Below are positions 2,780 through 56,075 of a DNA stretch of 64,000 nucleotides, piece by piece. Source of the stretch: Candidatus Sediminicultor quartus (GTDB lineage Bacteria > Atribacterota > Phoenicimicrobiia > Phoenicimicrobiales > Phoenicimicrobiaceae). The stretch is from assembly GCA_011056645.1 (NCBI GenBank), contig DSEL01000184.1, forward strand, positions 7,699 through 71,698, read 5' to 3'. The position numbers and the translations under genes are program-made. The stretch's first letter is position 1. Every line of letters begins with the position of its first letter. Under the pieces are notes generated by a model. The model saw only the letters and a list, made by a program, of their open reading frames with translations, was not told the DNA's origin and did not search any database.

Positions 2780-2783
2780 GTCA

Positions 2784-2811
2784 GTTGTTAGTGAATAGTA
2801 TTTGGCAAATA
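2784..2811. repeat. copy of the GTTGTTAGTGAATAGT repeat family followed by palindrome TATTTG-g-CAAATA
   Basis: gttgttagtgaatagt at 2784-2799 matches the repeat at 54014-54043. TATTTGGCAAATA at 2799-2811 is a perfect 6-1-6 palindrome. Confidence 0.45.
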
Positions 2812-3053
2812 TAGTAACAAGTAATGTGTAATGAGTAAAAAAGAAAAATTCAGGAAATGGAATAAAATAGTATTACCTATTGAGTATTGCGTTAGGGAAA
2901 TAGTTGCCAAGGTCAAAAATCGTATCTTGTAAAAAAGATAGAATTTAGAAGTTAGGAGTAGGGGTTCGATTCATCGCACCCGCCGCTGTGCTATACTCTA
3001 TAATATACCCGATATTCAATACGATTAAATAAGATTAAATAAGAGGAGGAAAT

Positions 3054-4298
3054 ATGATTCAACAAAATAGGATTTTTTTAACAATTTTAATCATTTTGTT
3101 GCTTTCTACTTCTGTATTAGCCGGAAGTTTTTCCGGTACTTTAACTTATTCCGGGCAATATAATTTTGCCCAAGATGAGCTGTCAAATACTCTAAATTTG
3201 GACCTTGACTATATTCATAGCCTCACCGACGATATCTTTGTAGAGGGAGATCTGCTCATTAGATATTCTGACAGTTCTTCTACCAATCCTCTGATGATTG
3301 TACCCAAGGAACTGTATATTGGCACTTATGACCTTATTATTCCTAATTTAGATTTAAACGCAGGCAGGCTGATTGTAAGCTGGGGTTCATCGGATATGTT
3401 TAGCCCTTTGGATAACTTTAATCCTTCGCCTCCCGGGATATCTTTTGCGGATAGATCCTCCAGAAAGAGCGGAGTCTGGGCGGTTGATGCAACTTATTAT
3501 CTCAATGATATCACCTATCTGCAGGGACTATATCTTCCTCATTTTACTCCCTCATTCATGCCTGCAGGGTATGAAGAACAATTATATCTTTCCATGTTTT
3601 CTCCGGGATTTCAGGCACAGGGAATAGAAATAGATTCTATTAATTTAGACCGTAGTCTTCCCAAAAAACCAGCATGGGGAGTGAAACTGGGAAGAAGTTT
3701 TTCTACTTTTGATGCAGCGATCAGTTATTATAACGGATATTATCCCTTTGCTTATCCTGCGTCGGTAGAGCTCACTCCCGGAACTTCCGGGACATCTTTG
3801 AATTTAGGGTTGGAGTATCCCAAGAGAGATATCTTTGGATTTGAATTCCAGGGAGATTTCCCGGGGATTGAAGGGGCTACTTTAAGAGGGGATTTAGCCT
3901 ATATCATCCCACAACCCTGGCAAGTACAGGGTGAAGATATGCTAAAAGATCCTTACCTGAAAGCAATAATTGGTGCGGATTATACTACTTCTTTTGACCT
4001 CTACCTGAATGTAGCTTTTATTTGGGGATTTATCCTTGAAGAAGGAAAGCAATGTTCCCCTTATATTTTACTAAATGCCGAAAAAGACTTGAAAGATTCC
4101 AAGCTCACTCCGAATTATGTAGGAGTAATAAACCTTCAAGACGGAAGCATGATAAATTCTCTCGGTGCCAGTTATGATTTCACCGATGATTTTTCAATGA
4201 CCCTCTCTTACGTTAAGATTTTTGGGGACCAGGATTCAAAGCTGGGGCAGGTAAAAAGCGCAGAGGGATTATATGTCTCAGCAGAGTGGTGTTTCTAA
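3054..4298 (+). CDS. secreted hypothetical protein, possibly outer-membrane beta-rich, associated with the MMPL exporter
   Basis: GAGGAGG RBS 6 nt upstream and a clear signal peptide (LLLSTSVLAGS). Rich in aromatic residues, Gly and Ser. No recognisable catalytic motif. Confidence 0.4.
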   Translation: MIQQNRIFLTILIILLLSTSVLAGSFSGTLTYSGQYNFAQDELSNTLNLDLDYIHSLTDDIFVEGDLLIRYSDSSSTNPLMIVPKELYIGTYDLIIPNLDLNAGRLIVSWGSSDMFSPLDNFNPSPPGISFADRSSRKSGVWAVDATYYLNDITYLQGLYLPHFTPSFMPAGYEEQLYLSMFSPGFQAQGIEIDSINLDRSLPKKPAWGVKLGRSFSTFDAAISYYNGYYPFAYPASVELTPGTSGTSLNLGLEYPKRDIFGFEFQGDFPGIEGATLRGDLAYIIPQPWQVQGEDMLKDPYLKAIIGADYTTSFDLYLNVAFIWGFILEEGKQCSPYILLNAEKDLKDSKLTPNYVGVINLQDGSMINSLGASYDFTDDFSMTLSYVKIFGDQDSKLGQVKSAEGLYVSAEWCF

Positions 4299-4885
4299 TG
4301 GATAGTGAAAAGATGAACAAAAAAGAAAAAATTTTAGAGGCTGCCCGGGATACGTTTTTTAGCAAGAGCTTCTACGAAGCCACCATGGATGATATCGCTC
4401 AGCTTTCCGGAATAAAAAAATCTACTATCTATTACTATTTTCCTTCTAAAATAGATTTGGCTTCAGAGCTTTTGGAGCAACATATAAAAAATATTTTTGA
4501 AAAGACCAGCGAAATAATTGATACCACCCATAATATTAAACTACGGATTAAAATGATCATAGACTTTTATCTAAAACTTTTAGCAGAAAATTCCAAAATA
4601 TTTATTATTCTGGAAAGAATTGCTTATGATTTTATGCAAAAAGACCACAGCAAAAAAAAGATAAATAAGCTCTTCGAAAAGTTAAGAGACAAACAGAAGA
4701 AATTGAGTGACCTCTTTGGAGACATCATCTTATCTTCCGGTAAAAAAGTAAGCGGAGATCTATTTTTATATTCCCTGGTTGCTGCCCTGGGAAGAGTTAT
4801 TTTTGAAAATGTGTCTCAAGGAAGAACTCCCAAGAAAGAGGATCTCCTGGCTATCGGCGATATTTTCATCGCCTCAGTAAATTGA
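4298..4885 (+). CDS. TetR/AcrR family transcriptional regulator
   Basis: N-terminal TetR HTH (ILEAARDTFFSKSFYEATMDDIAQLSGIKKSTIYYYFPSK). The start overlaps the preceding stop as TAATG. The TGA stop lies inside REP copy 4883-4909. Confidence 0.8.
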   Translation: MDSEKMNKKEKILEAARDTFFSKSFYEATMDDIAQLSGIKKSTIYYYFPSKIDLASELLEQHIKNIFEKTSEIIDTTHNIKLRIKMIIDFYLKLLAENSKIFIILERIAYDFMQKDHSKKKINKLFEKLRDKQKKLSDLFGDIILSSGKKVSGDLFLYSLVAALGRVIFENVSQGRTPKKEDLLAIGDIFIASVN

Positions 4886-4912: not shown

Positions 4913-5767
4913 CTATTCTTCTTTGCTTTTGAAATAAAAATTTCCGACGGCAATAATGGAAACAGTTACGATTAAAATAAAAGATATGGCATTGATAACC
5001 GGGGTAGACCCATCTCTTACCTGTTGATATAAAATGATAGGCAGGGTGGGTTGAGAGCTAATCAGGAATGTGGTGGTATTAAAATTCTCAAAGGACATCA
5101 GGAAGGCTATGGCTGCACCTCCTATAACCGAGGGCTTGAGATACTGAAGGGTAATAAACCAGATAACCGAAAATCGATTGGCGCCAAGATCGGACGCGGC
5201 TTCTTCAAGCGTTCTATCAAATTTTCTTAACCTTGCTGAAATAACCATGGTTACGATAGTGGTAATAAAGGAAAACTGACCAAGAACTATAAGCCAGAAA
5301 CCTGGCCTTAGTATTTTTATATCAATCCCAAAAACATTCTCAATAAATAATCCTACTGTAGTCGAGAATAAAAGTATGGATATACCGAGAATAACTCCCG
5401 GAATAACCAAGGGAGCGATCATTAAGAAATATAAAGCACCCTTAAATTTGAAATCTTCCTGTTCAAAGAGAAAAGCAGCCATCGTTCCGACAATAGTTGA
5501 AAAGATAGAAACTGAAATTGCTACTTTAAAGGAAGTAGCTATCGCCCTTAAATTCATTTTGTCATAAAATATACCAATTTTTTCAGGCCCTTTCCCAAAA
5601 AACCAATCAAAAGTAAACCCTTTCCAGGGCAAAGAGGGGAACATAGAATCATTAAAGGCCAGAATCATGGTGATAACCAGCGGAGCAAATAGAAAAATAA
5701 AATAGAAAAGTGCAAAAAGCCTGTAACCCGATAAATAACTTTTAGAATTTGGTAATGTTCTTATCAT
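4913..5767 (-). CDS. potC: ABC transporter permease, spermidine/putrescine PotC-like
   Basis: Six-TM permease with an EAA loop (EEAASDLGANRFSVIWFITLQYLKP). Last gene of a binding-protein/ATPase/permease/permease operon. Confidence 0.7.
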   Translation of the reverse strand: MIRTLPNSKSYLSGYRLFALFYFIFLFAPLVITMILAFNDSMFPSLPWKGFTFDWFFGKGPEKIGIFYDKMNLRAIATSFKVAISVSIFSTIVGTMAAFLFEQEDFKFKGALYFLMIAPLVIPGVILGISILLFSTTVGLFIENVFGIDIKILRPGFWLIVLGQFSFITTIVTMVISARLRKFDRTLEEAASDLGANRFSVIWFITLQYLKPSVIGGAAIAFLMSFENFNTTTFLISSQPTLPIILYQQVRDGSTPVINAISFILIVTVSIIAVGNFYFKSKEE

Positions 5768-20036: not shown

Positions 20037-20063
20037 AATGTGTTCACCTCTCTATTTTATCTG

Positions 20064-20091
20064 TCTACCTATCTACCTGTCTACCTATCTA
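20064..20091. repeat. tandem 8-bp repeat (TCTACCTR) x3.5
   Basis: tctaccta tctacctg tctaccta tcta, immediately upstream of the gntR start codon (5' leader/promoter region), in the region shared with the TRAP operon 3' end. Confidence 0.6.
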
Positions 20092-20343
20092 TTTAAAGAT
20101 TATAACAAAATTTCTCTTTTGTCAAATAAAAAATGAAGAAAAATTAAAAAAAGATGACCTTCCTTGCTGTCTATCGACTTAAACCTCGAGCAGCTTTTTT
20201 CAAGGCAACGAATAAGGAACCACGATACCGAAAGTATTGATCAAATCTTCTGAAATATAAATTTTATCCCCTTTTATCTTCCGTAAAAGTTATTCAATTA
20301 TTGAGTTAAATCAATGGTTCCCCGTATCATTATTTTCTTTATT

Positions 20344-22308: not shown

Positions 22309-23325
22309 TTAGTATCGGTAGGGAGCACCGGCTGCTTTCATGGTCTTTTCGTATTCTTTAAGTATCTCTACCACTTTGGCACATCTGGGGCTTCTTTTAG
22401 CAACCTCGTCCCAGTATTTTAAGGCTGCCTCTTCCACTACTTTCCACTCCTCTTCGGGGATGGTAGTAAGCTGCATCTTTTTCCCCTGTGTTCGGTAACG
22501 AGCTTCGCCAGCCCAGTACCAATGTAGTCGATAGTAATGGGATTTGTCTATTGCCAGCAGGAACAATTGCTGCAGGTGAGGAGGCACTTTCTCCCAGGCT
22601 TCGGTATTAACAAACCAACCGCCTGACCAGCCTCCGGATATAGGATTGGTCAGATAATAATCGCAAACATCAGCCCATCCCACGGTATAATCCTCGGTGA
22701 TACCGGACCAACAAACTCCGTCTAACATACCCGTTTGAATGGCCATTTCAACGTCCTCATAGGGCATAACCGTTGGGACAACACCGAATTGTGTCATGAA
22801 ATCGCCCCCGGTGGGGAACATGTACATTCTCAGTCCCTTAAGATCTTCCATGTGACGGATGGGTCTGGTAGTTGCAAAATTGCAGGGATCCCAGCTCCCC
22901 TGGCTTAACCAGGTGACACCTTCTATCTCATCATAGGCTTCCTTCCAAATTTCGTTCAGCCCCCACCAATTCCACAGCGCATTAACATCTATTCCGTATC
23001 GTACAGCCATAGGGAAATAAGCGGCAAATACAGATACGTCTACAGGAGCAGCCATGGAGTCATCGTCACTAACCACTGCATCAACCGTTCCTTCCTGTAA
23101 TGCTCGGAATAGCTCACCATGAGGCACCAGCTGATCAGCGGTGTATACTTCGATGAACATCTCTCCGTTGGCAGCTTTATTAAACTCATCTATGGCATTT
23201 TTACAGACATGTTCATTCAGGGCAGGGCCGGCGTAGGATTGAAGTCTCCACCTGATGGTTTCGGCAGCTACTGAAGTACTTAAAATAATAAGCAATAAAA
23301 GTGTAACAAAAATTATTTTTTTCAT
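22309..23325 (-). CDS. dctP: TRAP transporter substrate-binding protein (DctP family)
   Basis: Signal peptide plus a DctP-type fold. Visibly more GC-rich than its neighbours. The ATG at 23325 is preferred over the GTG at 23331. Confidence 0.7.
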   Translation of the reverse strand: MKKIIFVTLLLLIILSTSVAAETIRWRLQSYAGPALNEHVCKNAIDEFNKAANGEMFIEVYTADQLVPHGELFRALQEGTVDAVVSDDDSMAAPVDVSVFAAYFPMAVRYGIDVNALWNWWGLNEIWKEAYDEIEGVTWLSQGSWDPCNFATTRPIRHMEDLKGLRMYMFPTGGDFMTQFGVVPTVMPYEDVEMAIQTGMLDGVCWSGITEDYTVGWADVCDYYLTNPISGGWSGGWFVNTEAWEKVPPHLQQLFLLAIDKSHYYRLHWYWAGEARYRTQGKKMQLTTIPEEEWKVVEEAALKYWDEVAKRSPRCAKVVEILKEYEKTMKAAGAPYRY

Positions 23326-44862: not shown

Positions 44863-45399
44863 TTAATAATTTTCAAGTTTTACTTCAAAATATGCTCGAG
44901 GATGCTTGCATACCGGGCAGATCTCGGGTGCTTCCTCCCCCTCATAGATATTGCCGCAATTCCGGCATTTCCAAAATATTTTTCCTTCTTTTTTAAATAC
45001 CTTTTCCTGCTCTATATTCTTTAACAGCTTCCGATAACGTTCTTCATGTCCTTTTTCAATTTTAGCAATTCCCTCGAACATTTTAGCAATCTTTTCAAAT
45101 CCTTCTTCTTTTGCTTCTTTGGCCATACGAGCATACATATCGGTCCATTCGTAATTTTCACCGGCTGCTGCTGCTTTTAAGTTCTCAACCGTATTTCCTA
45201 TCCCGGATAATTCTTTAAAGTGCAGCTTGGCATGTTCCTTTTCATTTTCAGCTGTTTCCAAAAAAATAGAAGCAATCTGCTCATATCCTTCTTTCTTGGC
45301 AGCGGAAGCAAAGTAAGTATATTTATTGCGGGCTTGGGATTCTCCAGCAAAGGCTTCCATTAAATTTTTCTCGGTCTTTGTTCCTTTTAGATCTTTCAT
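44863..45399 (-). CDS. rbr: rubrerythrin
   Basis: Diiron four-helix-bundle ExxH motifs plus a C-terminal rubredoxin-like CxxC...CxxC ([12 protein letters not shown]...CPVCKHP). Confidence 0.85.
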
Positions 45400-45485
45400 T
45401 TTCTATCCTCCTAAAATATTTTTTTAAAAGGTGTTTTTAAACCCATTAGCTTTAGTTTAATTATAGAGCAGAGTCACTATCATTC

Positions 45486-45494
45486 ATTATACCA
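45486..45494 (-). promoter_or_regulatory. extended -10 promoter element (TGgTATAAT) upstream of rubrerythrin
   Basis: The reverse complement of ATTATACCA gives TGGTATAAT, about 90 nt upstream of the rbr start. Confidence 0.4.
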
Positions 45495-45540
45495 CATACC
45501 ACTGCCTTATAATTTTGTGGCGCTTTAGGGATTGCCAACC

Positions 45541-46716
45541 TTATAAATTTTTATGTTTTTCTGCTATTTCTCCGGCTAATTTTATTAAAGAATTATAATC
45601 TTCTTCTTTGGGATAGCCTTTTATGATCACCGGAGAAAGAATCTCTACTTTTAAATTTCCTATCATTGCACTAATGTTTTCCAGCATCTTTCCTCCCCAC
45701 CCGTAAGAGCCGATAACCGAGGCAAATCTTAATTTTGGCCTTAAGGCGTTAGCCAGATAAACTGCTGAGATCATCTGGGGATGTGCACCGGCTAAAACCG
45801 TAGGGGAGGCAATGACAATAGTGGCGGCATCTACCAGGGCAATAGCCAAAGCGCCTATATCAGTCCTGGAAAGATTAAATAGTTTCACCGTTATCCCTTT
45901 TTTCATTAATTCTTCACTTAAGATATACACCATCTCCTCGACACTGCCATGCATAGAGACATAAGGAATGATTACTTCATTCTCCACCTCATCGGAAATC
46001 CAATCTTGGTAAGCTGACAAAATGAATTCCGGATGAGAATAGATCTGGCCGTGACTGGGTGCAATAGTTTTAATCTCCAATTCGTTTAATCTCTCTAAAT
46101 GCTTTTTGATATTGTTACGGAAAGGCATCATGATCTCTGCATAATAACGTTTGGCAGAAAAATAAACTCTGGGTTCATCATCCACCCATAAATTACTCTC
46201 GGCAAGATGTGCTCCGAATAAGTCACAGCTGAACAAAATTTTATCTTCTTCCAAATAAGTTAACATGGTTTCCGGCCAATGTACCCAGGGAGCAATGATA
46301 AATCTCAGCGTTTTTTCCCCTAAATCGAGAGTGTCATTATCTTTTACGGTTATTACCCGATCTTCCGTCACAAAAAGATGATCTTTTAACATGTTTTTGC
46401 ATTTCTCATTGGTTACCACTTTTGCTTCTGGATACATTTCCAATAATAGAGGAGCAGCCCCGGAATGGTCTTGTTCAGCATGATTTACCACGATATAGTC
46501 CAGATGCTCTATCTCCAGATCATCCAAATTGTCTAATAAATCATCTTCTTTGGTCGGGTCTACCGTATCGATTAAAGCTGTTTTCTCTTGCCCTTTTATT
46601 AGATAAGCATTATAACTGGTACCCTCGGGAAGGGGAATGAGTTCATCAAATAGCCTTCTATCCCAATCAATTGCTCCTACCCAGTAAATATCTTTTTTTA
46701 TCTTTTTTACCGCCAT
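45541..46716 (-). CDS. fprA: flavodiiron protein (FprA / rubredoxin:oxygen oxidoreductase type; metallo-beta-lactamase plus flavodoxin domains)
   Basis: N-terminal beta-lactamase-like diiron domain (HAEQDHSGA) and a C-terminal flavodoxin-like domain. Confidence 0.85.
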   Translation of the reverse strand: MAVKKIKKDIYWVGAIDWDRRLFDELIPLPEGTSYNAYLIKGQEKTALIDTVDPTKEDDLLDNLDDLEIEHLDYIVVNHAEQDHSGAAPLLLEMYPEAKVVTNEKCKNMLKDHLFVTEDRVITVKDNDTLDLGEKTLRFIIAPWVHWPETMLTYLEEDKILFSCDLFGAHLAESNLWVDDEPRVYFSAKRYYAEIMMPFRNNIKKHLERLNELEIKTIAPSHGQIYSHPEFILSAYQDWISDEVENEVIIPYVSMHGSVEEMVYILSEELMKKGITVKLFNLSRTDIGALAIALVDAATIVIASPTVLAGAHPQMISAVYLANALRPKLRFASVIGSYGWGGKMLENISAMIGNLKVEILSPVIIKGYPKEEDYNSLIKLAGEIAEKHKNL

Positions 46717-46718
46717 TT

Positions 46719-47435
46719 CTAATTCACCTCTTCAAATTCATCTTTACTGGCACCACATACCGGGCATACCCAATCATCAGGCAGGTCTTCAAAGGGAGTT
46801 CCTGGATTTACTCCTGATTCAGGATCTCCTTTTTCAGATTCATAAATATATCCACAAACGGTACATTTAAATTTAGACATTTTTTTAAACTCCTTTCTTT
46901 CTGTATTTATTTTTTCCCTCGATTTTTCCTCTTTAGGAATATAAGTAGGTGCATTCTTGGGAGAAACGCCTTTCTGCACCTGATGGTAATAATCATAAGT
47001 CAATGGTTTCCCTGGTTTAATATTCTCTGCTTCCACCACTTTCCCGATAAACAGGGTATGAGTTCCCGCATCCATTTCCCCTATTACCTCTGTCTCGATA
47101 TAAGCCAAGGTATTTTCCATAACTATGGGCGAACCGCTTCTCCCTATCTTATAGTCTACTCCCTTAAATTTGTCTTCATCTCTTCCTGATTTAAAACCAA
47201 ATCTTCCGATAAATTTCATATCAGTGTCCTGTTCTAATACCGAAACGGCAAAGACCCTACTTTTGGTAATAAATTCATGGGTTAAATTTTTTTTATTAAT
47301 GCAAACTGCTATAGTAGCCGGTTCGGAAGTAGTCTGAAAAACTGTATTGGCAATCTGTCCATTGATACGATTCTCTTTTTTTGAACTGACTATATAAATA
47401 CCATAACTAATATTGTAAAGTGCTTTTAAATCCAT
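46719..47435 (-). CDS. hrb: high-molecular-weight rubredoxin (flavin-reductase-like domain fused to rubredoxin)
   Basis: N-terminal flavin-reductase fold. C-terminal rubredoxin ([12 protein letters not shown]...[14 protein letters not shown]). Confidence 0.75.
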
Positions 47436-47485
47436 TTTCTTGTTCCCTCTTTAAAAAATTAAAATTTTAAATGAAAAAAGGTGTA

Positions 47486-47513
47486 GTAGGGACGTATCGC
47501 GATACGTCCCTAC
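47486..47513 (-). terminator. 28-bp perfect palindrome (GTAGGGACGTATCG|CGATACGTCCCTAC) between dfx and hrb; likely partial terminator/attenuator
   Basis: Perfect 14-bp arms. On the coding strand it is followed by ...ACACCUUUUUU. Confidence 0.5.
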
Positions 47514-47523
47514 AATCCCCGTA

Positions 47524-47910
47524 TTATTTGCCTTCTGTATGTTCCCATAAACCATGGACATTGCAATATTCTCTAATCTTTTTCAATCCTTCCACATCTT
47601 TAAAGAAGGATTCCGGTTTATCCCCGGGTTTCAAATATTTTCGGGAAGTACCTTTCTCAGTAACCACCTGGATCCATTCGATATAATGTTTCTCTTCCAT
47701 AGGATGTAGAGTTGAGCCGATTATCGCCTTAATCCCGGAAGGAATTTTCTCCATCACCGGTACATGTTTTTCGGTCGTCTGATCAGCAGTCTGTTCTTTC
47801 ATCAACTTCATTTCCTGTCCGCAACAGACTAAAGCTCCTTTCCCCTCATGCAGCACCTCAACAATGTTTCCGCAAACCTCACACTTATAGATCTCTAATT
47901 TCTTAGTCAT
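47524..47910 (-). CDS. dfx: desulfoferrodoxin (2Fe superoxide reductase)
   Basis: N-terminal desulforedoxin CxxC...CC motif (CEVCGN...LVCCGQ). Centre II His/Cys ligands (HPMEEKHYIEW, CNVHGLW). Confidence 0.85.
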   Translation of the reverse strand: MTKKLEIYKCEVCGNIVEVLHEGKGALVCCGQEMKLMKEQTADQTTEKHVPVMEKIPSGIKAIIGSTLHPMEEKHYIEWIQVVTEKGTSRKYLKPGDKPESFFKDVEGLKKIREYCNVHGLWEHTEGK

Positions 47911-48322
47911 TTACCTTTACCTCCTTTTTTGTTATAGACGCTATGGTTATGGATTTTAATTTTTCCTTAACCTCCTGTTCTATCTCGTCTATCTTTTTCT
48001 TTAAAAGACAATCGTTGATAAAAGGACAATCGTTTTTTTTAAATTTATGTTCATTTAATCTTATCGATCCCTGAAATATTTTCATGATATCAAATAGGGT
48101 TATTTTCTCGGGAGACGCAGCCAAAGCAAAACCTCCGCCCTTGCCCTTAGATGAATTAAGTAACCCTTCTTTGTTTAAAGTTTGTAGTATTTTTCTCAAA
48201 AAGGGGCGGGGCATCTCCAATGATGCCACTAATTGGTCACCGGAGATGACTTCTTGTTTTTGTTCGGTAATATAACAAAGCGCCCTTACCGCGTAATCGG
48301 TGTTTCTGGTAATAAACTTCAC
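47903..48322 (-). CDS. Rrf2 family transcriptional regulator
   Basis: MKFITRNTDYAVRALCYIT... is a typical Rrf2 HTH. The C-terminal region carries Cys residues. Confidence 0.8.
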   Translation of the reverse strand: MKFITRNTDYAVRALCYITEQKQEVISGDQLVASLEMPRPFLRKILQTLNKEGLLNSSKGKGGGFALAASPEKITLFDIMKIFQGSIRLNEHKFKKNDCPFINDCLLKKKIDEIEQEVKEKLKSITIASITKKEVKVND

Positions 48323-48381
48323 TTATCCATCACCCTTTGCTTGTTTGATAAAAACGCCTCTTATTATAACTCTCTCTTTCA

Positions 48382-48410
48382 CTTTTATTATGATACTATA
48401 ATTGTATCTT
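48382..48410 (-). promoter_or_regulatory. sigma-70-like promoter of the rrf2-dfx operon (-35 TTGACA, 17-nt spacer, -10 TATCAT)
   Basis: Reverse complement of 48405-48410 gives TTGACA and of 48382-48387 gives TATCAT, with a 17-bp spacer. Lies about 50 nt upstream of the rrf2 start. Confidence 0.5.
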
Positions 48411-48418
48411 TTTGTCAA

Positions 48419-48435
48419 TCTGTGGTTTGAAAATG
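48419..48435. promoter_or_regulatory. perfect palindrome TTGAAAAT-g-ATTTTCAA immediately upstream of the rrf2 promoter -35 element (candidate operator)
   Basis: 8-bp perfect arms, seen directly. Confidence 0.4.
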
Positions 48436-48442
48436 ATTTTCA

Positions 48443-48478
48443 ACCAAAAAAGCCCCCTTACTCTTATCAGTAAGGGAG
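48443..48478 (-). terminator. rho-independent terminator (bidirectional form) after the secreted-protein gene at 48526-49107
   Basis: AGCCCCCTTACT-cttatc-AGTAAGGGAGCT, flanked by A6 and T6. Confidence 0.6.
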
Positions 48479-48525
48479 CTTTTTTCATTCATTAAAATTA
48501 ATTATTTTTTTGATAGTTTAAAAAT

Positions 48526-49107
48526 TTATTCGGCTGATAATGTTTTTACTCTTTCTACAATCTCCATTATCTGGTAAGGCGAAAAACGATATTCTCCCCT
48601 TAAATCATCTATAGTATTGTTAAGAGTATAGGTTTTAGTAAGTTTAAATTCATTCTTAATTCCCTCTAATAATTGATTGGCATCTACCCCCCAAAGATTA
48701 GCAATCTTGGCAATGGTCATAGTCTTCATTTCCATTCCACTTATATGAACTTGTAATCCAGAAATATTATCTGTAGAATTTCTTCTCCAACCATTCCCCT
48801 GGGGTACACCCTCACAGGTACCATCACATTCTTCCTCACAATTATGCAGTACATAATCCGTATCCTGTCCGTTGGGGATACCATCTCCATCCTCATCGGG
48901 TGCATTTTTATTATTCCCCATTTTAGCATTAATTCCATTATTTGGGCTCCCTATACAGTCTGCACAATTTTGGTTTTGCCCCTGGAAAGAGTTCCCCTTT
49001 CCTTTTAATCCATTACCGTCCGCTAAAACCAAAGCGGCGAAAATTCCTACTGCCAGCGCGATGATCAGCAAGATAGTTCCTGTTTTTAAAATTCTTCTAC
49101 TTATCAT
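48526..49107 (-). CDS. secreted/membrane-anchored hypothetical protein with Cys-rich and Asp-rich (calcium-binding-like) segment
   Basis: Signal/anchor sequence (ILLIIALAVGIFAALVLA) and DEDGDGIPNGQDTD (a thrombospondin type-3-like motif). Multiple Cys residues. Confidence 0.4.
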   Translation of the reverse strand: MISRRILKTGTILLIIALAVGIFAALVLADGNGLKGKGNSFQGQNQNCADCIGSPNNGINAKMGNNKNAPDEDGDGIPNGQDTDYVLHNCEEECDGTCEGVPQGNGWRRNSTDNISGLQVHISGMEMKTMTIAKIANLWGVDANQLLEGIKNEFKLTKTYTLNNTIDDLRGEYRFSPYQIMEIVERVKTLSAE

Positions 49108-49240
49108 TCTGTTCGTTCCTCCTTAAAATTTTTGTTGACAATTTTTTTGTCATTCACTTATTTATACGTGAAAGGGAGGAACTTTCTTTCATTGCCGAAA
49201 AAATATTTTTTAAAAAATCAGTCTCTTACTTTCGGGCTGA

Positions 49241-49705
49241 TTATATAGTTTCCTTCCAAACCTGCTCTATTCTATTATAATGTTCCCCGGTAGCCACGGC
49301 TAAATCAAGTAAAACTTGTTTAATTTCTCGGCAATCAGGCTCAAAGACTTCGAAAAATTTCTTCTCTATCAAGCCACTTTCGATGTCTCGAGCCACTGAT
49401 AAAGCATATTTATTTGATATTTTATTGTTTTGCGCTTCAGCTATTTGATTTTTAATGTATTCCAGTGATGTTCTTATCGCTTCCACTTTAAATCTTCCTT
49501 GTTTAAAAAACAACGACCCTTCCTTTGCTTTAGAGTGAAGCTTGAAGATCCATCTAGCGTGTTCTAATTCTTCTCTTGCTATTTTAGACCAAAAATCCTT
49601 TTGTTCGGAAAATTGATGAGCATATTCTCTATAGAGGCGGCCAATCTCTTTCTCATGTTCCGCCAATAGTTCTATTATTTCAATTTGTTTCTTTTCTAAA
49701 TCCAT
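49241..49705 (-). CDS. hypothetical protein, possibly ferritin-like diiron four-helix bundle
   Basis: Two ExxH-like motifs (REELEHARW, ATGEHYNR). A weak call. Confidence 0.3.
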   Translation of the reverse strand: MDLEKKQIEIIELLAEHEKEIGRLYREYAHQFSEQKDFWSKIAREELEHARWIFKLHSKAKEGSLFFKQGRFKVEAIRTSLEYIKNQIAEAQNNKISNKYALSVARDIESGLIEKKFFEVFEPDCREIKQVLLDLAVATGEHYNRIEQVWKETI

Positions 49706-52964: not shown

Positions 52965-53894
52965 TCATTTTTTTATTTTATTTTTTAAATTTTCTATCTC
53001 TTTTTCCAGCCATTTGGGATATTTTGGTACCGCACCGGATTGGGATACCACAAAATTACCTACCATTTCTGCAAATTCTGCCGCCTCATACATACTGGTT
53101 CCGCATAAATAAGAAAATAGAAAACCTGCACTATAACTGTCTCCGCCTCCTACAGTATCGGCTACCGGCCCATTTATTCCCGGTACCTTTTCCATCTTGC
53201 CATTACGATAAACAGATGAGCCATTCTTCCCGTGAGTGATACAGACAATAGAAGGGTGGTATTCCCGACAAATAAGCTCCGCAAGGTTTTCTTGTTTTAA
53301 TGTTTGTCCGAAGAGGAGTTCAGAAATAGTAAGAGCCTCTCTATCGTTTAATTTTACTATTGAGCACTGGCATAGAGATTTTTCAATCCAATCCTTATGG
53401 TAGTAATTTTGCCTTAAATTGATATCATAGAATATGTAATTAGGGTGCGCCCAAGAAATAATTTGGCTGAGCACTTCCCGGTTTTCTTTGGTCCTTTGAG
53501 CGAGAGTTCCAAAACAGAAAATTTCCCATTCGTTTTCGCTTAAATGGTCGATCAGATCTTGATCTAAAATAATATTGTCCCAGGCAACATTTTCTTTTAT
53601 TAGATAGGTAGGATGACCCCTTTCGTCCAGGCTCACCTCTACAATTCCGGTAGGCAGATAGGGGTGGATCCGGATAGAAGAAGAACGAATACCTCTTTTT
53701 TCTGCTTCTTTGATTGCTTTCCGTCCTAAAGCATCTCTGCCTACAGAAGAAATAAGTGTCGATTCAAATCCCATTTTTGACATATGGGCAGCGAGGTTAA
53801 AGGGGGCACCGCCAATATATGGTTTGTTCTCTATGATGTCCCAGAGAATTTCTCCAAAAAATAAAGCTTTCACTCTTGCCTCTCCTTTCTTCAA
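52965..53894 (-). CDS. PfkB-family carbohydrate kinase (fructokinase-like)
   Basis: N-terminal GG motif (IGGAPFNLA) and C-terminal DTVGGGDSYSAGFL anion-hole motif. Confidence 0.75.
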   Translation of the reverse strand: MKKGEARVKALFFGEILWDIIENKPYIGGAPFNLAAHMSKMGFESTLISSVGRDALGRKAIKEAEKRGIRSSSIRIHPYLPTGIVEVSLDERGHPTYLIKENVAWDNIILDQDLIDHLSENEWEIFCFGTLAQRTKENREVLSQIISWAHPNYIFYDINLRQNYYHKDWIEKSLCQCSIVKLNDREALTISELLFGQTLKQENLAELICREYHPSIVCITHGKNGSSVYRNGKMEKVPGINGPVADTVGGGDSYSAGFLFSYLCGTSMYEAAEFAEMVGNFVVSQSGAVPKYPKWLEKEIENLKNKIKK

Positions 53895-54010
53895 GTTTAA
53901 ATTAATCAGGTGTTTTATTTATATATAAATATTCTACAAGTTTTTCAAAAATCCTCTTTTTTTTATAAAATTAGATAAAATTTTTGTTTTTTATTGAAAC
54001 ACTTTATTAT

Positions 54011-54273
54011 TAGTCGTTAGTGAATGGTGAATAGTTGTTAGTTTTAAATACAATTTATGAAGTGCGAGTTTATTCATTCTGCCGATCTACCAGTTTTCCT
54101 GTCGACCAGTCAATTTGGTTGTTAGTTTAAAAGGTTTTCAGTTACAAGAGGTCGATTCATCAAACCCATCTGTTTTTTTCTGTCATTGCGAAATGACCAA
54201 AGTGATCTCATTTTGTATCTTAAATTTATTCTCCGTATTTCCTTCACCAAATACTAACGACTAACGACTATTC
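54011..54273. repeat. approximately 260-bp intergenic element bounded by inverted GAATAGTYGTTAGT-type repeats (MITE-like or structured sRNA candidate)
   Basis: Left end is tagtcgttagtgaatggtgaatagttgttagtt (54011-54043). Right end is actaacgactaacgactattc (54253-54273), the reverse complement of gaatagtcgttagtcgttagt. An internal copy gttgttagtt sits at 54118-54127. Confidence 0.45.
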
Positions 54274-54340
54274 GGGCTTGCGAAAAATATAAAAAGGAAT
54301 ATAATGAAATAAAATTACCCATCAAAGAGGGGGGATAAAC

Positions 54341-54781
54341 TTGAAAATAAAAGAAGTTATGATCCCAGACCTAACTTCCGTATCGGCTAATACCCCGATA
54401 AAAGAAGCCGTAAAGATCATGAGCCAACAGCGTATGGTAGGGCTACCCGTTGTAGATAACGATCAAAATGTCATTGGAATAATTACGGAAAGCGATATTG
54501 CCAAAGCCTGTTTACCCGGCTATTATAAAGAATTGCAAAATCCGTCTTTTATCCCTGATTTTGATCAATTTTCCCGGCAAGCTAAAAAAATTGCTCATTT
54601 AGCGGTAAAAGAATTTATGACTACTATAGTCTATTCGGTAGAAGAAGATACCAGCAGGACGCAGGCAGCAGATCTGTTATTCAGAAAAGATCTGAGAATC
54701 GTCCCGGTAGTAAGAGCGGGAAAATTAGTAGGAATACTCACTCCCTCTTGTCTATGTAAATATGCTATGGAAGAAGGTTAG
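54341..54781 (+). CDS. CBS-domain pair protein
   Basis: Two CBS motifs (GLPVVDNDQNVIGIITESDI and RIVPVVRAGKLVGILT). Confidence 0.7.
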   Translation: MKIKEVMIPDLTSVSANTPIKEAVKIMSQQRMVGLPVVDNDQNVIGIITESDIAKACLPGYYKELQNPSFIPDFDQFSRQAKKIAHLAVKEFMTTIVYSVEEDTSRTQAADLLFRKDLRIVPVVRAGKLVGILTPSCLCKYAMEEG

Positions 54782-54800: not shown

Positions 54801-56075
54801 ATGAATCAACCGCTTATAGCTTTAATAATATTCATATCTACGCTTATATTTGTTAGCCTGGAAAAGATTCAACGCACGGTAATTGCCCTAAGCGGAGCCC
54901 TTCTGTTTATACTATTAAAGATACTGACCCAAGAGGAGGCTTTTTTAGCAATAGATTTTAATACCATCGGCTTACTGACCGGTATGATGGTTATGGTCTC
55001 AATCATCAAAAGAACCGGGCTATTCCAATATCTGGCCATTAAAATATCTAAACTGGCTCACGGAAATATATTTTATCTCTTGTTTTTTCTAAGCATTATT
55101 ACCGGCGCTCTATCTTCCATACTGGATAATGTCACCACCATCATACTCATCGTCCCCATCACTTTGGCTATCTGTGAAAACTTAGAAATATCTCCCATGC
55201 CTTTGGTGATATCTGAAATATTTGCCTCTAATATAGGAGGAACTGCCACACTTATCGGGGACCCCCCTAATATAATAATAGGAAGTGCAGCCCATCTCTC
55301 CTTTATGGATTTTATTATAAATCTTGCTCCTTTTGTCGTGATGTTGTTAATTCTCCTGCCTTTCTTTGTCAGGCTATTTTACAAAAAGGAAATGTCACAA
55401 GATGTTAAGGAAGCCTGGGAAAAAGTAGAGAAATTCGATGAAAAGAAGGCAATTGAAGACCCCGTGTTATTAAAAAAATCTCTCCTGGTCTTTTTATTAA
55501 CGATATCGGTCTTTATCTTCCATCATAATCTGGGCTTAGAAGCTGCTACGGTAGCTTTGGCCGGAGCAACTCTCTTGCTTTTGGTCAGCAATATAGATCC
55601 GGCGGAAACTTTCCTGGAAGTAGAGTGGTCTACTCTCTTCTTTTTTATCGGACTTTTCATCGTAATAGCGGGTGTGGAAAAAGTGGGAATTATTCGCGAG
55701 TTGAGCAATATCATTGTCACTTTAACCAAAGGAAATCTTACTTTTACCACTTTGGCGGTTTTGTGGATTTCGGGAATCACCTGTTCTTTGGTTAATAATA
55801 TCTCTTATACTATCTCCATGGTTCCGGTCATTCATCATATCGGAACAGTTACTACCTTTAATCTCAACCCGGTCTGGTGGGCTTTATCCTTGGGTGCCTG
55901 CCTGGGAGGAAATGGAACCTTTATAGCAGCTGCCGCTAATTTAGTGGGAGTAAATATACTAAAAAGGCAAGGTCAGATAATAACCTTCAAAGACTTTTTT
56001 CAAATCGGCCTTCCGATTATGCTAATATCTATTATTCTATCTTCGGCCTATCTTTTTTTAAGGTATTTATGGTAA
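54801..56075 (+). CDS. ArsB/NhaD-superfamily anion permease (citrate/arsenite transporter-like)
   Basis: 424-aa polytopic membrane protein with an internal repeat, typical of the ArsB/NhaD fold. The ATGGTAA at 56068-56074 includes the TAA stop. Confidence 0.65.
   Translation: MNQPLIALIIFISTLIFVSLEKIQRTVIALSGALLFILLKILTQEEAFLAIDFNTIGLLTGMMVMVSIIKRTGLFQYLAIKISKLAHGNIFYLLFFLSIITGALSSILDNVTTIILIVPITLAICENLEISPMPLVISEIFASNIGGTATLIGDPPNIIIGSAAHLSFMDFIINLAPFVVMLLILLPFFVRLFYKKEMSQDVKEAWEKVEKFDEKKAIEDPVLLKKSLLVFLLTISVFIFHHNLGLEAATVALAGATLLLLVSNIDPAETFLEVEWSTLFFFIGLFIVIAGVEKVGIIRELSNIIVTLTKGNLTFTTLAVLWISGITCSLVNNISYTISMVPVIHHIGTVTTFNLNPVWWALSLGACLGGNGTFIAAAANLVGVNILKRQGQIITFKDFFQIGLPIMLISIILSSAYLFLRYLW

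Follow-up and report, generated by a model that had tools for sequence, protein, structure and literature searches.

Inverted TAGT-heptad arrays in the spacer between a pfkB-family kinase gene and a CBS-domain gene of an Atribacterota genome

Intergenic direct repeats of TAACTGA and of mixed heptamers have been described in Beggiatoaceae, Cyanobacteria and Bacteroidetes (MacGregor, 2015; PMC4679880). These repeats lie close to start codons, with occasional reversed copies after stop codons; they show 7-nt insertions and deletions between strains, contigs break at them, and their distribution across phyla is unexplained (PMC4679880). The REP, REPIN and BIME sequences are built on a palindromic unit tied to the RAYT transposase (Bertels and Rainey, 2011; PMC3116915). 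Here we analyze a stretch of 64,000 nucleotides from the Atribacterota genome Candidatus Sediminicultor quartus (contig DSEL01000184.1; hereafter the window), in which the spacer between a divergent pfkB-family kinase gene (minus strand) and a CBS-domain gene carries two inverted arrays of TAGT-containing heptads. Among the systems we compared, the TAACTGA and mixed heptamer repeats are the nearest described phenomenon to this TAGT-heptad module.

The cyanobacterial short tandemly repeated repetitive (STRR) heptanucleotide sequences are further close relatives in kind. In three other families, Correia (Neisseria), ERIC (enterobacteria) and BOX (pneumococcus), each copy is a complete unit of 100-150 bp whose interior is conserved, and Correia elements have TA target duplications; to our knowledge, none of the three is built from heptamer arrays. 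Mrazek reportedly recognized, in 2007, a heptanucleotide class of long simple sequence repeats.

The inverted ends as copies of a dispersed heptad module

A first-pass annotation of the window had described an intergenic element of about 260 bp with GTTAGT-rich inverted ends, a third copy of the motif inside and a small hairpin, and each of these was found where it had been placed. The ends extend further than was described, with the best inverted pair at 54010-54031 and 54243-54264 (22 nt, 86% complementary, 211 nt between the arms). As an inverted pair they are only modestly unusual, the score being matched by 6 of 200 dinucleotide shuffles of the spacer. The core 11-mer TAGTCGTTAGT, allowing at most one mismatch, has five sites in the window against 0.44 expected, a count reached by none of 100 shuffles. 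Four of these sites lie in the spacer (54011-54021 and 54032-54042 on the plus strand, 54253-54263 and 54260-54270 on the minus strand) and the fifth at 22525. The internal copy reads GTTGTTAGTT(T)AAA, and the hairpin GTCAT-TGCGAA-ATGAC at 54183-54198 has a predicted fold of -3.7 kcal/mol. For the whole element, the predicted plus-strand RNA fold has -62 kcal/mol (z-score -3.15).

Each arm is an array in which heptads follow one another in strict phase, a 7-nt period overlooked in the first-pass annotation, and in both the unit is repeated head to tail as in heptanucleotide arrays. The left arm comprises five in-phase T[AG]GT heptads (TAGTCGT TAGTGAA TGGTGAA TAGTTGT TAGTTTT), while the right arm, reverse-complemented, is GAATAGT CGTTAGT CGTTAGT ATTTGGT; for the latter, Tandem Repeats Finder reports period 7, 2.6 copies and 100% matches over 54253-54270.

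The arms are two independent, oppositely oriented copies of one small dispersed repeat. The repeat, or module, is 33-48 nt long and consists of heptamers in an imperfect array whose units keep the fixed order TTAGTCG TTAGTGA ATGGTGA ATAGTCG TTAGT. We built a sequence-only model of it, R1, from 29 module copies at unrelated loci, with none taken from this locus or its orthologs. With filters off, R1 recovered the left arm at 54008-54050 (43.9 bits, E = 5.7e-13) and the right arm at 54243-54264 (17.6 bits, E = 1e-4). In addition, it detected a third, weaker copy near the start of the window. That copy stands at the edge of a second repeat island (2780-3053, between ORFs, i.e., open reading frames, 1958-2779 and 3054-4298), which also contains an intact GTAGGGGTTCGATTCATCGCACCC hairpin box at 2958 and three copies of ATTAAATAAG directly before the ribosome-binding site. 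Beyond the window, the left arm is 95.7% identical over 47 nt to locus L027 and 93% identical over 45 nt to locus L028.

A scan of one genome per bacterial species with the 19-base pattern TTAGTCGTTAGTNNNTGGTGAA returned 26 loci. Ten were from Atribacterota, including three contigs of a single metagenome-assembled genome (MAG), and eight from Planctomycetota lineages. Two further loci came from one MAG, and one of these (L027) has a flank in common with the Atribacteria locus L032. Nostoc, Bacteroidales, Flavobacteriales, Chitinophaga, Clostridia and a Roizmanbacteria MAG contributed one locus each, and variant forms of the module occur in other phyla. Bases outside the fixed positions of the pattern are also common to the loci (consensus TTAGTCGTTAGTGAATGGTGAATAGTCGTTAGT), and the Atribacterota copies have a TTAAA lead and a ATTAAATACAAG tail. 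An identical 26-mer is shared by contigs whose GC content is 31-36% and by Planctomycetota contigs at 35-49%. Across the 195 kb of fetched loci R1 identified 46 copies, of which L032 alone holds up to seven within 8 kb, and contigs often end at module copies. The array is not one repeated heptamer: the fixed order of differing heptads is conserved between loci and phyla. Nor is it an imperfect palindrome of the REPIN kind, as the module 33-mer is predicted to be unstructured (0 kcal/mol, z-score +0.6).

Searches for a vehicle, a partner or an earlier description of the module were negative within their scope. A scan of viral contigs with the 26-mer gave 0 matches; BLAST gave no matches in a plasmid collection and one chance-level match in a phage collection, in searches whose sensitivity may have been cut by the low-complexity filter. 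No protein family recurred in more than two of the 118 ORFs beside module copies, and those few were all housekeeping families. The strings GTCATTGCGA, TCGCAATGAC, TAGTCGTTAGT and ACTAACGACTA matched only unrelated primers in published text, and we found no published description of the TAGT-heptad module or of the GTCATTGCGAG box (see below), including in the literature on Atribacteria repeats. The TAGT-heptad repeat family appears to be undescribed. We also considered a sigma-70 promoter within the module and dropped it; by eye there is no acceptable -35/-10 pair in either orientation, and the promoter scan lists none inside the arms.

The copies share a characteristic position. In an analysis of 47 arrays from non-redundant loci, which relied on crude ORF calls at loci selected by the motif itself and gives figures that are indicative only, 46 arrays were intergenic. 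Measured outward from the TTAGTCG terminus, the nearest gene was a median of 64.5 nt away and at most 40 nt away in 18 of 42 cases; measured inward, the median was 278 nt and the gap was at most 40 nt in 1 of 39. Since the terminus faces both gene starts (11 cases) and gene stops (7 cases), orientation tracks the spacer edge irrespective of which way the gene runs. Both window arms follow the family rule, with TTAGTCG outward. Several other spacers are bracketed by an inverted pair in just the manner of the window, among them two in L032 (3016-3047 with 3389-3420, and 4784-4801 with 4966-4984), and in L038 a compact inverted doublet of 127 nt (1113-1239) consists of a stop codon, array, hairpin box, inverted array and ATG. 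The spacing of such doublets ranges from 63 to about 340 nt, and the L038 doublet is predicted to fold as DNA with a z-score of -5.1. At L028, L029, L032 and L038, the gap between an array and a start codon that follows it is 2-43 nt, and that to a stop codon in front of it 2-9 nt.

Between the window arms lie two further small boxes, both decayed, and apart from these the interior is unique sequence. The local copy of the first box (GTAGGGGTTCGATTCATCGAACCC in its canonical form) no longer folds; canonical copies are present in L032, L028, L014 and at window position 2958. The second box, canonically GTCATTGCGAG-(GC-rich hairpin)-CGAAGCAATC, has 11 copies in the fetched loci and no match to an Rfam family. 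In the Planctomycetota loci L017, L022, L034 and L038 it stands just inside an ACTA-oriented array, with order and orientation matching those in the window. As an element in its own right, it is dispersed across phyla (L017, L022, L024, L029, L030, L034, L038 and the window) and is often fused to the inner end of an array.

Had the 260-bp unit been mobile as a whole, as the first-pass annotation proposed, further copies of it and a flanking target-site duplication might be expected; neither was seen. The interior is single-copy across the window, the 26 loci and a metagenome collection: BLAST found no second copy of the spacer elsewhere in the window, the 26 other loci share only short boxes with it, and an interior 32-mer has a single match in the metagenome collection, at the orthologous site. 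There is no flanking duplication of 3 nt or more, the flanks reading ...CTTTATTA and GGGCTTGC or TTCGGGC depending on the arm end chosen, and none was seen at L038 or L032. What stands of the repeat-element proposal is that the ends belong to a multi-copy dispersed family, some members of which form compact inverted doublets (e.g., L038); as a classical miniature inverted-repeat transposable element (MITE), the 260-bp unit fails.

The spacer and its replacement among relatives

The pfkB gene starts at a TTG at 53894 (longest ORF) or, in public gene calls, at a GTG near 53876. The spacer, previously put at 445 bp, accordingly measures 446 nt to the former start and about 465 nt to the latter. 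It is not devoid of ORFs above about 20 codons, as had been claimed: ORFs of 49 aa (54115-54264, plus strand) and 42 aa (54122-54250, minus strand) exist, with neither a ribosome-binding site nor convincing coding conservation for either. We considered a small protein from the minus-strand ORF, which has a TTG start and is partly conserved in the related locus L006. It is probably no gene; two of three substitutions relative to L006 are non-synonymous, and similarity is lost in frame where the block shared with L006 ends. The features of the spacer are collected in Table 1.

Table 1. Features in and around the pfkB/CBS spacer and the related module copy near the start of the window (positions in the 64-kb window).
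Feature	Position	Strand	Description
Third, weaker module copy	2783-2813	+	R1 13.4 bits, E = 0.002; begins 4 nt past the stop of ORF 1958-2779
Likely pfkB promoter (candidate, read by eye)	53920-53948	-	TTGAAA 53948-53943, 17 nt, TATATA 53925-53920; outside the element
AT-rich module	53950-54007		...TTTTTTTTATAAAATTAGATAAAATTTTTGTTTTTTATTGAAACACTTT; between the pfkB promoter and the left arm; conserved in every ortholog (alignment)
Left arm	54008-54050	+	full module copy, TTAGTCG TTAGTGA ATGGTGA ATAGTTG TTAGT plus TTTAAATA tail; outer TTAGTCG toward pfkB
Internal partial repeat of module inner end (GTTGTTAGTTTAAAA)	54118-54132	+	direct repeat, 93% identical to 54034-54048
Decayed hairpin box	54150-54167	+	GGTCGATTCATCAAACCC; canonical GTAGGGGTTCGATTCATCGAACCC
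Decayed second box	54182-54207	+	GTCATTGCGAAATGACCAAAGTGATC; canonical GTCATTGCGAG-(GC hairpin)-CGAAGCAATC; contains the GTCAT...ATGAC hairpin
Right arm	54243-54273	-	shorter module copy, inverted; plus strand TTCACCAAAT ACTAACG ACTAACG ACTATTC; outer terminus toward the CBS promoter
CBS-CitMHS operon promoter	54278-54305	+	TTGCGA, 16 nt, TATAAT; promoter scan 10/12
CBS-domain gene	54341-54781		followed by CitMHS/ArsB-type transporter gene, 54801-56075

The CBS-CitMHS promoter lies outside the element, directly downstream of it, and is kept in all relatives examined, L005 and L044 included; the right arm stops 4 nt upstream of its -35 hexamer, which would place the element outside the CBS mRNA. 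The candidate pfkB promoter is not listed by the promoter scan because its -10 hexamer ends in A, but both of its hexamers fall in alignment columns conserved across orthologs. If these promoter assignments are right, the element would lie upstream of both promoters and in neither mRNA. The AT-rich module between the pfkB promoter and the left arm is retained in L005, L043 and L044, which are without one or both arms, and we regard it as the spacer's best candidate for real regulatory DNA.

We compared the spacer in ten lineages whose transporters are 84-100% identical to that of the window. Contigs of the same species (L001-L004) are identical to the window except L002, which has exactly one ACTAACG unit fewer, together with two unpaired substitutions in the left arm. 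Across lineages, two, three, four or five ACTAACG-type units stand beside the -35 hexamer, the length thus changing in steps of 7 nt. In L042 the whole island is co-linear with that of the window, at about 83% identity over the 3.7-kb locus and, by eye, higher within the island; this indicates that the island is old and has been inherited vertically, with a divergence close to the neutral level of its flanks.

Other lineages show wholesale replacement. L043 and L042 encode an identical CitMHS protein and have flanks that are 99.4% and 97% identical, yet their islands (L042 1744-1970, 227 nt; L043 1860-1969, 110 nt) are unrelated. The breakpoints of this replacement fall inside the TAGT array on the left and at the -35 hexamer of the CBS promoter on the right. 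L006 is a mosaic, L040-like in its left and middle parts and window-like in its right block; the shared block (54150-54240) matches the window at 96-98% identity, against about 83% for coding DNA, and given the mosaic structure, selection on this block need not be invoked. L006, L010 and L009 have either lost the left arm or keep it in truncated form, and in L044 and L045 the spacer is near-empty apart from a heptamer array.

The array beside the CBS -35 hexamer is itself exchanged. A different composite array, ACGAGAT ACGATTC ACGAGAT GCGAGAT, occupies this place in L009, L005, L040 and L044/L045, and TCGATAC units do so in L043. The former array, extended by ACGAATT, is also found at unrelated loci (L018, about 2040-2075; L025, about 400-450), and its fixed order of units parallels the pattern of the ACTAACG array.

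Pairing between the arms was not significant in L006, L010, L009 and L005. A single compensating change was observed (TGGTGAA in both window arms, TAGTGAA in both L042 arms), which carries little weight, since both variants are frequent throughout the family. Some interior segments match relatives in reverse (window 54090-54114 with L005, and L009 with L010). We considered whether these reflect inversion between lineages; the matches are too short and too scattered for proof.

The encoded proteins assign the window to an uncultivated member of the Atribacterota. The spacer sits in a sugar-utilization locus that encodes a LacI-family regulator, an ABC sugar transporter, a GH32 hydrolase, a HAD phosphatase and the pfkB kinase. 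Several observations concern the surroundings. If its longest ORF is taken as the real one, a convergent HAD-hydrolase gene shares 44 nt with the 3' end of the CitMHS gene (56032-56075). The promoter and AT-rich upstream module accompany the CBS-CitMHS pair in L005 and L043 too, where the gene context differs from window 52.4-57.7 kb, with a PucR regulator upstream in L005 and a 2-hydroxyacid dehydrogenase and a GntR regulator downstream in both; the pair may behave as a movable cassette. Elsewhere in the window, an oxidative-stress cluster (44863-49705) encodes rubrerythrin, a flavodiiron-like protein, a flavin reductase-rubredoxin fusion, desulfoferrodoxin and an Rrf2 regulator, and a tandem octamer, TCTACCTA in 3.5 copies, lies at 20064-20091, at the edge of the spacer 20037-20343.

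Explanations for the island and the module family

We consider it probable that the untranscribed pfkB/CBS spacer holds a mosaic island of small dispersed repeats driven by slippage and recombination. The arrays would expand and contract by replication slippage, as suggested by the 7-nt indels between strains. Dispersed copies would provide portable homology through which recombination, possibly including uptake of DNA from related populations, could swap, invert or delete whole segments of the island; both the mosaic in L006 and the replacement between L042 and L043 indicate breakpoints at or beside arrays. In this spacer the island would be largely passive DNA that at most alters how far, and in what phase, the CBS promoter lies from the conserved AT-rich upstream module. 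As for the spread of the module, it could be moved in trans in the manner of REPIN or MITE sequences, or be maintained by a putative binding protein.

Several points weigh against this explanation. No mobilizing enzyme, vector or donor was found in the viral scan, the plasmid and phage BLAST searches or the flanking ORFs. Slippage and recombination by themselves can hardly account for the near-identity of 26-33 nt of non-coding DNA across phyla, which suggests a sequence-specific partner, though none was found. A heptamer array stands directly upstream of the CBS -35 hexamer in 10 of 10 orthologous spacers, so this position could be under selection and not passive. The abutment of modules on stop codons or Shine-Dalgarno sequences by a few bases at other loci hints at an RNA-level role for the family. 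Finally, the orientation statistics rest on crude ORF calls and motif-selected loci. In a broader proposal, which we rate as rather unlikely, the module and the GTCATTGCGAG...GCAATC box may together form a horizontally spreading "punctuation" element that marks intergenic edges and is read by a conserved sequence-specific protein or nuclease. Its hosts would be Atribacterota, Planctomycetota and other anoxic-sediment bacteria, and its role might lie in RNA, where it would form a stem processed by RNase III or a ribosome standby site, or it might serve as the substrate of a mobilization system that exchanges intergenic cassettes.

Among explanations at the DNA level, the classical MITE, i.e., a 260-bp non-autonomous transposon whose GTTAGT-rich terminal inverted repeats are recognized by a transposase encoded elsewhere, is unlikely. 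It would account for the 22-nt, 86% complementary ends, for the sharply defined and always outward outer terminus of the module, for compact inverted doublets such as that of L038 (127 nt, fold z-score -5.1), for the frequent stopping of contigs at copies and for the replacement or absence of the island at the orthologous site in L043 and L044. It is contradicted by the single-copy interior and the lack of a target-site duplication, and every copy has its own arm spacing and interior, many being singletons; no transposase was seen among 27 window ORFs scanned (35.8-63.7 kb), and none is shared among the 118 flanking ORFs. The co-linearity with L042, at the identity of the flanking genes, argues for long vertical residence. 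We hold it highly unlikely that the arms instead bound an inverton in which a site-specific recombinase flips the 211-bp interior; the geometry resembles that of known invertible promoters and a few interior segments match relatives reversed, but a single orientation is present in five same-species contigs (the window and L001-L004) and L042, where assemblies report only the majority orientation, the same 27 ORFs include no recombinase, the interior is without a good promoter, and the arms are generic dispersed repeats. Operator clusters are also improbable: under this explanation a regulator bound upstream of both promoters, possibly looping the 200-bp spacer, would co-control pfkB and CBS-CitMHS. 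Each arm does point to its nearest promoter, with the right arm ending 4 nt from the -35 hexamer; a heptamer array fills the -35-proximal slot in every ortholog, and a LacI-family regulator is encoded 7 kb away. Multiple regulator sites, as the first-pass annotation had suggested, are nonetheless unlikely in view of the two to five heptads beside the -35 hexamer, each unit of which would rotate a bound protein by about 240 degrees, and of the unrelated ACGAGAT or TCGATAC heptamers that take their place in close relatives with the same promoter and genes. Variable heptad number and interchangeable arrays beside an unchanged promoter argue against a phase-sensitive regulator site. The left arm, moreover, is lost or truncated in three orthologs, no other promoter in the window bears the motif, those of the sugar locus included, and the module also stands beside unrelated housekeeping genes in several phyla.

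At the RNA level, the family might function as a G-poor, ACUA-oriented array beside Shine-Dalgarno sequences, i.e., a ribosome standby or S1 site, or as paired arrays forming an RNase III stem that punctuates polycistronic mRNA, in which case the window copy would be a non-transcribed relic. The short distances of arrays from starts and stops in L028, L029, L032 and L038 fit this idea, as do the unstructured 33-mer, the long stems predicted for inverted pairs (z-scores of -3.15 for window RNA and -5.1 for L038 DNA) and the translational role proposed for the analogous TAACTGA repeats (PMC4679880). We nevertheless judge it improbable, given that orientation follows the spacer edge and not gene direction (11 starts, 7 stops), that both local arms lie upstream of promoters and that arm pairing is not conserved. 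A riboswitch, 5' leader or small RNA encoded between the arms, the other possibility raised by the first-pass annotation, is very improbable. The stable predicted fold of the plus strand and the 96-98% identity of block 54150-54240 to L006 would be in keeping with a structured RNA, but the fold is driven by the arm repeat, whose pairing is not kept in L006, L010, L009 or L005, and mosaic recombination accounts for the conserved block, which L009, L010, L005, L043 and L044 lack. The element has no convincing internal promoter or terminator and lies outside the CBS mRNA. An Rfam covariance search of both strands at E up to 10 gave no relevant match, the sole match in the searched stretch being HIV-1 SL3 (E = 0.71) at 54618-54647, inside the CBS gene; at gathering scores, 15 related loci yielded only tRNAs and a glmS ribozyme, elsewhere in those loci. 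HutP- or TRAP-like UAG-repeat RNA sites were likewise considered and dropped, as orientation is independent of transcription and the local copy is upstream of promoters.

For the locus itself, the explanation by slippage and recombination of dispersed repeats is a deflationary result: the inverted ends are not a switch, riboswitch or operator, and annotation pipelines should not call them so. The local copy is ordinary in function and the family moderately interesting, with the module representing a known kind of bacterial repetitive DNA in a new variant form and in new phyla. Its wider interest lies in identical non-coding sequences of 26-33 nt across phyla that stand at intergenic edges and are tied to wholesale intergenic replacement in near-identical strains; the family also breaks metagenome assemblies. 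If a recognizing protein or mobilization route were to exist, it would provide a new handle on the movement of non-coding DNA among uncultivated sediment bacteria and would extend the heptamer-array puzzle of Beggiatoaceae, Cyanobacteria and Bacteroidetes.

Comparison with known repeat systems

The window element resembles Correia, ERIC and BOX sequences in being small, non-coding and intergenic, with inverted ends or a modular build, in its place beside promoters or in operon spacers and in the copy-number variation of internal modules. Unlike these, it is not copied as a whole unit with a conserved interior and is built from heptamer arrays. With REP, REPIN and BIME sequences the family has in common short extragenic repeats that are over-represented outside genes, are often arranged as inverted doublets that may form a hairpin, form mosaic clusters with other small motifs, and include singlets resembling decayed doublets. 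In contrast to REPINs, the TAGT-heptad module is no palindrome, its doublet spacing extends from 63 to about 340 nt, and the fetched flanks of its copies yielded neither a RAYT gene nor another transposase; whereas REP families are genome-specific, the module is common to several phyla.

The closest correspondence is with the TAACTGA and STRR arrays. Like these, the TAGT-heptad family has a 7-nt unit and is intergenic, lying a few bases from starts and sometimes reversed just past stops; mixed heptamers occur in one spacer, strains differ by 7-nt indels, contigs break at the arrays, and the distribution over phyla is patchy, without vector or function. The differences concern how the repeat is built and placed. 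The TAGT-heptad module is an imperfect composite of fixed order that is copied whole, and not a perfect tandem of one heptamer; it uses other heptamers and occurs in other phyla (Atribacterota, Planctomycetota); and its orientation is set by the spacer edge, with the same terminus outward and inverted pairs frequent.

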